Shown here piece after piece: positions 21,177-43,553 of a stretch of DNA of 64,000 nucleotides. Origin of the DNA: a virus; IMG/VR virus record IMGVR_UViG_3300020416_000002; one strand, written 5' to 3'. The notes beneath the pieces were generated by a model. The model saw only the letters and a program-made list of their open reading frames with translations. It made no database searches and was not told where the DNA came from. Every line of letters starts with the position of its first letter. Position 1 is the first letter of the stretch. The translations under genes were made by a program, and so were the position numbers.

Positions 21177-21320
21177 CTAACTCTTAGAGGCGAACTTGCG
21201 TTTCACCTTAATGCCACGATACATTAGTTCATGGTTACGGTTTTGTTCTCTCTCTGCGAGAACTTTTGCTTTATATCCTTCGGCGTCGTATTTGACACCG
21301 CGATAGGTGATTTGAGTCAT
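21177..21320 (-). CDS. DUF4278-family small protein (47 aa)
   Basis: MTQITYRGVKY...LMYRGIKV; two YRG motifs; GGAG RBS. Confidence 0.85.
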   Translation of the reverse strand: MTQITYRGVKYDAEGYKAKVLAEREQNRNHELMYRGIKVKRKFASKS

Positions 21321-21354
21321 TTGCCTTCTCCTGAAGTAGTTGGGATTTTAGCCC

Positions 21355-21554
21355 CGTTCCTTCAGTCGTTTGCGTCCCATGTACATGTTAGACCCATTGT
21401 TTCAACTAGATGAACTTGATAGATTTCCATGATTTCAATCCTCTGTTGAGGTGTGAGGTCAGGATGTCTTTTTACGCGATCAAGCTTTTCAGCAATATCC
21501 GCACAAGTTACACCTGCGACCAATAGTCCTACTAAATGTATCATAGGATGAACG
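21355..21554 (-). ncRNA. glutamine riboswitch aptamer 2 with greatly expanded P2 loop
   Basis: 5' CGUUCAUCC ... GGGACGCAAACGACUGAAGGAACG 3'; P1 CGUUC/GAACG; directly upstream of DUF4278. Confidence 0.7.
21362..21544 (-). CDS. 60-aa protein nested within riboswitch aptamer 2
   Basis: MIHLVGLLVAGVTC...TCTWDAND; hydrophobic N-terminus, two Cys, GGAG 10 nt upstream. Confidence 0.7.
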   Translation of the reverse strand: MIHLVGLLVAGVTCADIAEKLDRVKRHPDLTPQQRIEIMEIYQVHLVETMGLTCTWDAND

Positions 21555-21557
21555 CTC

Positions 21558-21597
21558 CGTTCCGCGACCTACTTGCGTCCCTTTCGGGATGAACGAT
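21558..21597 (-). ncRNA. glutamine riboswitch (glnA-type) aptamer 1
   Basis: AUCGUUCAUCCC-GAAA-GGGACGCAAGUAGGUCGCGGAACG; P1 CGUUC/GAACG, GNRA-capped P2. Confidence 0.8.
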
Positions 21598-21603
21598 ATG
21601 TGC

Positions 21604-21653
21604 ATTATAACACATTACTATGTATATGACCACTTATTGTAACATTTTGTAAA
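21604..21653 (-). promoter_or_regulatory. promoter with extended -10 and HLR1 (RpaB) box
   Basis: TGnTATAAT at 21604-21612; TTTACAAA-AT-GTTACAAT at 21636-21653. Confidence 0.65.
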
Positions 21654-21697: not shown

Positions 21698-22465
21698 TTA
21701 TCTGTAATTGGGGTTCGGTTTTCCCTCAGGGATTGAGTCTAAAACTTTTTCTCTTGGGAACCAACCGAGTTCACACAGTGCTGTAGTGTCAGCACATGTA
21801 ACATCTCTCTCGCCTGGCGTGTGCTCCTTGACTGGTAGATTTGCTTGACCAAATGCCTCTGCTAGTTCTCTTACCGTAGTAGTTTCTCCTGTTCCAATAT
21901 CAATAACTCCTGTGGTTGTGCTTGTCATTAAGTAACAAATTGCTCTAGCAACATCCTTCACATGAATCCAATCTCTTTTATGATTAGTAATATATTTTGC
22001 GGTCTTATCCTGTAACATTCTGTAAAGCATGTCAGGTCTGCTATTCTCACCGTAGACGGTCTGGAATCTCATTCCTACACTATTAGGTGGTGCTTGTAGT
22101 TCATTGACCTTCTTGGTGATACCATAAGGGTTCTGCCACCACTCTTCGACTTGTGCAGAACTAGCATAGAGTAACCTAGTTCTATATTTCCTACAATATT
22201 CAAAAATAGGTTTAGATTTCTCTACATTATTCTCCCAAAATTTTTCTGGATTATCTATGCTGTCTCTGATAGCAGCAAACGCTGCTAGATGAATAATAAC
22301 ATCATAGGGTTGATCAAACATACCAATCTCAGACTGAAAATCCCCGATATCATCGGGGAAATCCATACCATCAACTGAGTATCCATAACCTGCATCATGT
22401 CTAAGGTGATCAAACACATAACTGCCAATGAATCCCTTATGACCCGTAACAAGGATCTTTGTCAT
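21698..22465 (-). CDS. NAD-dependent nucleotide-sugar epimerase/dehydratase
   Basis: VTGHKGFIG, YASSA, YGITK. Confidence 0.9.
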   Translation of the reverse strand: MTKILVTGHKGFIGSYVFDHLRHDAGYGYSVDGMDFPDDIGDFQSEIGMFDQPYDVIIHLAAFAAIRDSIDNPEKFWENNVEKSKPIFEYCRKYRTRLLYASSAQVEEWWQNPYGITKKVNELQAPPNSVGMRFQTVYGENSRPDMLYRMLQDKTAKYITNHKRDWIHVKDVARAICYLMTSTTTGVIDIGTGETTTVRELAEAFGQANLPVKEHTPGERDVTCADTTALCELGWFPREKVLDSIPEGKPNPNYR

Positions 22466-43399: not shown

Positions 43400-43525
43400 A
43401 ATTAGGGTAAGTATTAGTGCAGGGAAACACTGATTATGGTATTCCTTTGTCACCCTTAGACAAAGGTATGAAAGACTATTATTTAATGTCGCTGTTTAGT
43501 CTTGGTGAGGCGACGAAGTATGACA
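43400..43525 (-). ncRNA. PhotoRC-II-like structured psbA leader
   Basis: GUCUUUCAUACC...UAAGGGUG...GGAAUA...UUUCCCUG...CUUACCC; UAAGGGU can pair with downstream pyrimidine runs; family assignment recalled, not searched. Confidence 0.6.
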
Positions 43526-43553
43526 GATGTGAGGAATCCCTCATCCGTTCATG

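Follow-up and report, generated by a model that had tools for sequence, protein, structure and literature searches.

Glutamine riboswitches of type 1 (glnA RNA, RF01739) and type 2 (Downstream-peptide RNA, RF01704) have in common the core CGUUCA, a P2 hairpin, ACGCAAGUA and GAAGGAACG. In Prochlorococcus, a glutamine riboswitch located before a DUF4278 gene activates translation, as does the one before gifB (Klahn et al. 2018, PMC6212724). In the gifB switch, the 3′ nucleotides of the aptamer pair with the region of the ribosome binding site (RBS) when glutamine is absent, and it was proposed that binding of glutamine opens this inhibitory duplex (PMC6212724). Glutamine aptamers also occur in rows; 157 doublets and four triplets have been listed as pseudo-cooperative tandems (Sherlock et al. 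2022, PMC9481103). In that survey, aptamers were considered tandem only without an open reading frame (ORF) between the domains, and gaps >300 nucleotides (nt) were excluded as likely to hide an unannotated ORF. Here, we discuss a leader RNA with an ORF inside an aptamer hairpin. It is encoded on a 64,000-nt stretch of virus DNA, IMG/VR virus record IMGVR_UViG_3300020416_000002, referred to below as the window (position 1 is its first letter, and all features discussed are on its minus strand).

Two glutamine-aptamer units are present in the window at 21595-21355, before a DUF4278 gene, and the ORF at 21544-21362 constitutes the loop of the second unit's hairpin. An earlier sequence-only reading had viewed the region as two independent aptamers in tandem, with a complete 60-residue gene inside the second. 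We find that the best explanation, with a probability of roughly 0.6, is an interlocked glutamine-sensor leader that carries the nested gene in one of its arms, such that folding of the RNA and translation of the nested gene would exclude each other.

Anatomy of the putative sensor RNA

Unit 1 (21597-21554) aligns with the Rfam Glutamine model RF01739 at 31.4 bits (E 5.6e-5; gathering score 35) and with Glutamine-II at 24.7 bits. Unit 2 begins with CGUUCAUCC at 21554 and finishes with GGGACGCAAACGACUGAAGGAACG at 21355. From the 5′ side, strand a (CGUUC, 21591..21595) is the 5′ strand of the outer closing helix and has strand d as its partner. It is followed by the first P2 hairpin, UCCC-GAAA-GGGA in the Rfam alignment (21578..21589), and by junction J1, CGCAAGUA, together with the P3 5′ strand GGUCG (21565..21577). 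The inner hairpin (21550..21562) consists of strand b, GAACG (21562-21558), the loop GAG and strand c, CGUUC (21554-21550), and the GAG loop with its preceding G forms an RBS-like GGAG. The 5′ strand of the second P2 arm (21536..21548) has the core UCCUA (21548-21544) and a lineage-specific extension to 21536. The AUG of the nested gene (21544-21542) lies inside this strand and shares its A with the end of UCCUA. Likewise, in the 3′ strand of the arm (21375..21386), the core UGGGA (21379-21375) corresponds to the Trp codon and the GA of the following Asp codon. The 3′ core (21355..21374) comprises J2 CGCAAA, the P3 strand CGACU, the stop codon UGA (21364-21362), GAAG and strand d, GAACG (21359-21355); the last U of CGACU is the first base of the stop codon. 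The five terminal codons plus the stop thus supply the 3′ strand of the arm, J2, P3 and the E-loop. A small hairpin follows strand d, then CUUCAG-GAG and the DUF4278 gene.

The RNA shares with RF01739 the conserved core CGUUCA, ACGCAAGUA and GAAGGAACG, P1, P2 and P3 helices backed by covariation and the leader position before a nitrogen-related DUF4278/IF17-like gene. The predicted minimum-free-energy fold of the window RNA (-87 kcal/mol, z -3.07) includes a 12-base pair (bp) stem, UCCUAUG-A-UACAU with AUGUA-CAUGGGA, and the CUGAAG/CUUCAG helix near the DUF4278 RBS. This long-range stem, the AUG in its 5′ strand and the final codons W-D-A-N-D-stop within the 3′ core had all been noted in the sequence-only reading, whose coordinates and other statements about the sequence are right.

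Interlocked or tandem aptamers

Related loci were collected from IMG/VR by pattern searches, and the counts given here refer to the matches listed and are lower bounds. Covariation among these sequences indicates that the two units are one interlocked fold, in which a-d forms the outer helix, b-c forms the inner hairpin, J1 and J2 pair in a shared P3, and two P2 arms project. This follows because the variants keep both a-d and b-c and because J1 pairs with J2. Written out, the arrangement is one nested structure: a( P2-1 P3( b()c P2-2 )P3 )d. Its outer part is a canonical glnA-type aptamer. The inner part, with which P3 is shared, is a copy that is both permuted and degenerate; we refer to it as degenerate because J2 is without the consensus GUA and the b side is without GAAG. 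We consider this anatomy and topology very likely to be correct.

The innermost bases of the closing strands (a,b,c,d) are canonical in ~147 cases, (C,C,G,G) in ~62, (U,C,G,A) in eight and (U,G,C,A) in one. Irrespective of the variant (~70 in all), a-d and b-c are Watson-Crick paired and c-d is broken; a-b is broken too, except for a U.G wobble in one locus (L191). Six apparent strand-a variants (G, A or T) turned out to be artefacts due to chance CGTTNA in the upstream coding sequence and were removed from this tally. In an alignment of 113 sequences, b-c is 100% paired with 19 double changes, and a-d is 100% paired with C-G replaced by U-A in nine. Conditional scans gave b = CAACG in 65 of 65 matches with c = CGUUG, and c = CGUUG in 73 of 73 with b = CAACG. 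Among loci found by the 3′ core only, the two changes occur together in five and single changes in none. Moreover, in a scan for variant d strands that left a free, d is AAACG, and each of the 10 complete loci with an upstream half has CGUUU as its strand a. For the 113 sequences, 98.3% of cells are paired under the interlocked model, with two-sided changes at seven pairs; under the tandem model, each P1 is open at its innermost pair in 19-20 sequences and has no pair with a two-sided change.

The junctions give corresponding evidence. The P3 helix is 96.5% paired with two-sided changes at three of its pairs. Here, J1 AGUCG pairs with J2 CGACU, and the compensatory variants AGUCA/UGACU, AUUCG/CGAAU and AAUCG/CGAUU are present. 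A longer junction variant has AGCCGACU on both sides of the helix, and in 15 sequences its end pair is A-U in place of U-A; the J1-J2 helix shows four kinds of compensatory change. Local 2-bp P3 mini-hairpins within each junction (AG-CCGA-CU) were also considered and rejected, as AGCCGACA and UGCCGACU break them and keep the J1-J2 pairing. RNAalifold predicted a-d, b-c and the long-range arm unprompted. In relatives that share the core motifs but have no ORF, the best cmscan alignment is to one aptamer from a to d with a P3 insertion of 38-41 nt, and it scores 38-41 bits (gathering 35).

The alternative is that the two aptamers are independent and each close a P1 of their own, with the gene in P2 of aptamer 2 and b-c only as an alternative pairing, non-functional or corresponding to an OFF state. 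Glutamine doublets have been listed as pseudo-cooperative tandems (PMC9481103), and single units do resemble RF01739, as seen for unit 1 in the window (31.4 bits) and for unit 2 alone in the ORF-less relatives (31-35 bits). In the canonical sequence, a-b and c-d are also perfectly complementary. The ~70 variants, however, keep a-d and b-c at the expense of c-d and, apart from the wobble in L191, of a-b; hence, closure of each unit by its own P1 was not found. A tandem arrangement cannot explain the a-d change to U-A. It also conflicts with the compensated J1-J2 pairing and with the local mini-hairpin being broken in 15 sequences. Independent tandem aptamers are, therefore, already disfavoured, and we regard them as the least probable of the explanations discussed here. 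The pairing between GAACG of the first unit and CGUUC of the second, which the sequence-only reading had proposed as an alternative structure, is real and covaries: it is b-c.

Several points weigh against an interlocked sensor. The sequences are mutually related, so that the counts do not represent independent events. Only the innermost P1 pair varies, and the choice of topology thus rests on one position per helix together with P3. In the canonical sequence, including that of the window, all four strands are mutually compatible, and the minimum-free-energy fold of the window uses a-b and not a-d. As a-b and c-d can still form there, the tandem pairing could occur transiently. In addition, a 5-bp helix that closes 170-240 nt needs help from tertiary structure. 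The score of unit 1 alone is below the gathering score, and an Rfam score for the full window unit is not obtainable with the 170-nt insertion. Finally, glutamine binding and regulation are predictions for this RNA.

Genes within the aptamer arms

The nested gene (21362..21544) encodes a 60-residue protein that matches phrog_504 (E 1.8e-15), or "T4-like GC 430". Using this protein as the tblastn query gave 92 cyanophage records at >=80% coverage, and a related-locus search by the single nested protein gave six loci. Eleven isolate phages with the ORF were examined, and in these the ORF is annotated as a hypothetical protein, with "T4-like GC 430" in several of the records. The protein has a hydrophobic N-terminus and two cysteines, C14 and C54, which are invariant across 70 sequences with identity down to ~20%. 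Differences among related copies at codon positions 1, 2 and 3 number 3887, 1615 and 6683, respectively, and 47% of the differing codons are synonymous. AlphaFold2 predicts a two-helix hairpin (pLDDT 77.6); a fold search against the PDB gave no match, the neighbors in the Atlas are viral hypothetical proteins only, and Pfam gives a weak HTH_23 hint only (E 0.097). Judged by its coding signature and homologs, the ORF is a real and conserved protein-coding gene. Together with the phrog_504 match, these data support the earlier proposal of a complete gene inside a glutamine-aptamer hairpin upstream of DUF4278.

The coding sequence is also constrained at the RNA level. Codons were counted in the loci found by the 5′ junction, a set chosen without regard to the 3′ end. 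Among the terminal codons, the first Asp is GAC in 106 of 106 and Ala is GCA in 106 of 106, compared with 23% and 40%, respectively, in the body of the same ORFs. The last Asp is GAC in 103 of 106 (again 23% in the body), and the terminal Asn is AAC in 66 vs AAU in three, where AAC accounts for 29% in the body. The five basal pairs of the long-range arm are 92-100% paired with compensatory changes, and a MAFFT alignment agrees. At pair 4, C-G is present in 63, U-A in 16, U-G in 12 and C-A in none, and A-U, U-A and C-G are all seen at pair 5. The 5′ partner in the arm is located just upstream of the AUG; it is hence free of coding constraint, yet it tracks the codon at the 3′ end. Synonymous shuffling within the ORF lowers the predicted probability of arm closure from 0.74 (native) to 0.54 (shuffled), and the native sequence beats the shuffled in 49 of 57 cases (Wilcoxon p 5e-7, which is optimistic because the sequences are related). 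These results support the suggestion that the arm across the nested gene is under selection as RNA. The covariation of the five basal pairs is what the sequence-only reading had named as a check on its P2 stem. Of the 12-bp stem that it described, the window has all pairs and the family conserves only these five. A 12-bp stem as a conserved feature was rejected, since pairs 6-9 occur about as often as chance would give when all sequences are taken together; extension beyond pair 5 is lineage-specific, and other lineages carry extensions of their own.

The first P2 arm can hold a gene as well. In ~35 of the loci listed (e.g., L005, L007, L009, L013, L016, L050, L054, L086 and L127 in our numbering), an ORF of 61-70 codons is located in the loop of this arm. 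It belongs to a second family, "T4-like GC 429/936", the members of which have a hydrophobic N-terminus and two Cys. Here too, the arm's 5′ strand contains the AUG, and the stop codon is either in the 3′ strand or is the UAA of a conserved CGCAAGUAA junction, giving a C-terminus that ends in GRK. Both nested genes are present in P-RSM4, S-TIM4, Syn19 and Sf-FR1, and L127 has three units. The window has the nested gene of the second arm only. The fold spans 240 nt, and >400 nt where there are genes in both arms.

A different view of these genes is that they are tolerated passengers. In this scenario, the outer aptamer (a, first P2, J1, P3, GAAG and d) senses glutamine and controls DUF4278 alone. 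The inner hairpin, the second arm and the gene would be a harmless insertion in a variable P3 loop, and nested translation would be independent of glutamine. The alignment by cmscan of a to d as one complete aptamer with the remainder as a P3 insertion is consistent with this, as are the departures of J2 and the b side from the consensus (see above) and the existence of ORF-less units that look intact. Against it, synonymous sites of the inner CGUUCA...GGGACGCAA are conserved to a degree that the protein does not require, and the arm over the ORF covaries, with a coding sequence tuned to close it. The AUG is always in the arm, and the RBS-like loop always in the b-c hairpin. Moreover, a second gene family occupies the other arm with the same arrangement. 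A passenger is accordingly unlikely in our judgment, though it ranks as the strongest competitor of the interlocked sensor with its nested gene.

Distribution among phages

At least ~200 distinct units bear an ORF, 160 with one nested gene and ~35 with two. In all 11 ORF-carrying isolates examined, the ORF starts directly after CGUUCAUCC(C/U) and ends in ...UGGGACGCAAACGACU(A/G)A, followed by AGGAACGG. One of the isolates with this layout, S-SKS1, is outside Kyanoviridae. P-TIM68 is without the ORF and has an ordinary 4-nt loop in its place. A scan of IMG/VR with the 3′ core listed 94 units with the ORF, 23 without and six that the rule left unplaced. Conversely, a scan with the 5′ junction and AUG, in which the 3′ end was unconstrained, listed 119 complete loci, and the strict 3′ core ends the ORF in 116 of these; the three exceptions are point variants. 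By sequence, the 5′-junction loci thus keep the 3′ core far more often than expected by chance.

The 3′-core pattern was also searched for in 185,579 cellular genomes, where it gave only phage-like contigs in metagenome-assembled genomes (MAGs) or single-cell assemblies and chance matches. A host origin of the arrangement is for this reason not supported, and the arrangement seems confined to phages. Several sequences filed as cellular carry the phage unit (L323, L335, L333, L328, L329 and L321), including a 194 kb Synechococcus MAG. Other carriers filed with cells are a Prochlorococcus single-cell contig of 189 kb and a Euryarchaeota MAG. These contigs are probably cyanophage sequence binned with cells.

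In some truncated units (L192, L194, L199, L200 and L202), the end of a coding gene replaces the upstream half (a, first P2, J1 and b). The same units keep c as CGUUG, the nested gene and d as AAACG, with c and d mismatched. Because this remaining c-d pair is mismatched, they probably represent a decayed sensor in which the gene has been retained.

Expression platform and proposed mechanism

The expression platform is located at 21328..21365. CUGAAG (21365-21360) and CUUCAG (21336-21331) form a helix that encloses a small GGG/CCC hairpin, and the CUUCAG strand is overlapped by the AGGAG RBS (21332-21328). Across the family, CU(G/A)AAG, which holds the stop codon, pairs with (C/U)UU(C/U)AG, and the latter overlaps AGGAG 9-11 nt before the AUG of DUF4278. 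The stop codon UAA is accompanied by U in the masking strand (CUUUAG) in 53 of 53 cases, and C is present only with UGA (26 cases). The complementarity that the sequence-only reading had seen next to the DUF4278 RBS is, in other words, real and covaries with the stop codon. A helix of this kind is an ordinary platform because it is also present in units without a nested ORF. In a number of loci (L007, L009, L024, L031, L046, L082, L108 and L189-L205), a conserved element of ~30 nt, of the form ..ACGGAUCC-stem-GNRA-like loop-stem-GAGAAGGUUAA.., replaces the small hairpin between d and the RBS-masking strand.

How might these parts work together? The composite is rather likely to be a working glutamine sensor. 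The interlocked fold is expected to block initiation on the nested gene, because strand c separates the RBS-like site from the AUG, itself part of the arm; the GGAG would be held in the loop and closing pair of the b-c hairpin. Among the matches listed, 125 of 201 ORF-bearing units have the GAG loop, as against none of 19 ORF-less ones. A ribosome reading the nested gene, in turn, would unwind the arm, and at the stop codon it would cover P3, GAAG and d, so that the fold could not form during nested translation. High glutamine would stabilize the fold, with CUGAAG held in the core, the DUF4278 RBS free and the nested start buried. The ON logic for DUF4278 in this model is taken from the gifB switch (Klahn et al. 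2018, PMC6212724). At low glutamine, the nested gene would be translated, and pairing between CUGAAG and CUUCAG would mask the DUF4278 RBS. A ribosome terminating at the stop codon in the core would open the masking helix only transiently. Such a ribosome would, however, also unmask the DUF4278 RBS, which would blur the reciprocity and is a further difficulty for the model. In its complete form, the proposal is that one strand-swapped fold with one or two nested genes gives, through a single conformational change, nested proteins at low and DUF4278 at high glutamine, with the ribosomes on the nested gene antagonizing the sensor; this we put forward tentatively, and the odds are somewhat against it.

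Another possibility is translational coupling. Here, unit 1 would gate nested initiation, and ribosomes that reach the stop codon in the core would open CUGAAG/CUUCAG and switch DUF4278 on, such that the two proteins are made together. The stop codon is within the 5′ strand of the RBS-masking helix, 41 nt before the AUG of DUF4278, its identity covaries with the masking strand, and the RBS-like GGAG is present between the units. The same URA and helix are, however, found in units without a nested ORF, and the helix is hence not specific to coupling. The covariation also favors a single interlocked sensor over unit 1 acting alone. We consider coupling improbable, distinctly more so than the passenger view.

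If the interlocked sensor with its nested gene is correct, it provides a model that can be tested, with ribosomes and a metabolite as competitors for the same RNA. Riboswitch aptamers have been treated as non-coding leaders; in this RNA, the sensor core doubles as a protein's start region and C-terminus, which makes it a natural case of dual coding under strong and measurable constraint. The secondary structure of cyanophage doublet glutamine riboswitches would be corrected, and this alters the modeling of cooperative sensing. Through the RNA, the nitrogen status of the infected host would also bear on which is made, small phage proteins or an IF17-like candidate glutamine synthetase inhibitor. 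The phage groups concerned include isolates that infect Prochlorococcus and marine Synechococcus.

Genomic setting

The window belongs to a T4-like cyanomyovirus, and the nearest relatives of the riboswitch region are Prochlorococcus and Synechococcus myoviruses. A cmscan of the whole window against Rfam at gathering level matched PhotoRC-II alone, and the glutamine units emerge only with E-value thresholds. The PhotoRC-II RNA is at 43431-43527 and scores 57.4 bits (gathering score 39).

The best explanation for the region is that it is the leader of a small cyanophage operon consisting of promoter, sensor RNA, DUF4278, a 33-residue peptide and terminator. A sigma-70-type promoter, TGGTCA-17 nt-TG-extended TATAAT, is located at 21604..21632 (10 of 12 matches, with TG before the -10), and homologous loci have a -10-like box at the same position. 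Transcription would start a few bases before strand a. An intrinsic terminator with a 9-bp stem and a T run (21047-21026) closes the operon, and promoter and terminator together bound a transcript of ~575 nt. The DUF4278 (IF17-like) gene under the proposed control (21177..21320) encodes 47 residues; it matches PF14105 at 26.2 bits, which is above the cut-off of 25.3, and phrog_5049 with E 1.2e-24. In relatives, a DUF4278 gene is likewise next after the sensor unit. Between this gene and the terminator is a hydrophobic ORF of 33 codons (21172-21071), for which neither Pfam nor PHROGs gave a family match. P-RSM4 has an annotated short ORF (GC 661) at the matching position. On the other side, a gene for an NAD-dependent epimerase/dehydratase (21698-22465; PF01370, E 7.5e-25) finishes a little upstream of the riboswitch promoter; most relatives have nrdB and small ORFs as upstream neighbors instead.

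Comparison with known systems

With RF01739 and RF01704, the RNA shares the P1/P2/P3 layout, a DUF4278 (IF17-like) gene downstream and the type of RBS-masking helix. It differs in that the P2 loop, which is 4 nt in the Rfam consensus, is a 183-nt gene, that core nucleotides also serve as the final five codons and the stop, and that two units are interlocked through a shared P3.

Group I introns carry homing-endonuclease ORFs in peripheral loops, sometimes running into the core, and their translation and folding compete. The likeness is a protein-coding gene within a hairpin loop of a structured RNA. The introns, however, combine a ribozyme with the gene of a mobile element, whereas here a metabolite sensor is combined with small conserved phage proteins without nuclease features. 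In the tandem glycine riboswitch, two homologous aptamers form one unit with a single expression platform, as in the present RNA. Each glycine aptamer closes its own P1, and the two touch by tertiary contacts; here, the two units swap closing helices.

The tandems of Sherlock et al. (2022, PMC9481103) likewise have two or three glutamine-aptamer units in a row before one gene. Those were described as independent and complete riboswitches, whereas the cyanophage units are strand-swapped (a-d/b-c), have a junction-junction P3 and carry genes inside. As tandem surveys discard cases with an ORF between the domains (PMC9481103), the present layout would have been missed. The Synechocystis gifB (IF17) riboswitch (Klahn et al. 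2018, PMC6212724) also controls a DUF4278 gene, and the translational ON response suggested here is by analogy to it. It differs from the phage RNA in being a host element with a single aptamer and no nested gene; the phage fold would, in addition, bury the start of a second gene.

Neither nested ORFs nor exchanged helices were found in the parts of Weinberg 2010 available to us, in Klahn 2018, in Sherlock 2022 or in the other literature matches that could be read. Within the accessible literature, the RNA would, if the proposal is true, be the first natural riboswitch in which the aptamer is also coding sequence. Collectively, what is known is the core, the platform and the regulated gene; what is new is the placement of genes in the aptamer arms, a core that is dual-coding, and closing helices that are exchanged around a shared P3.

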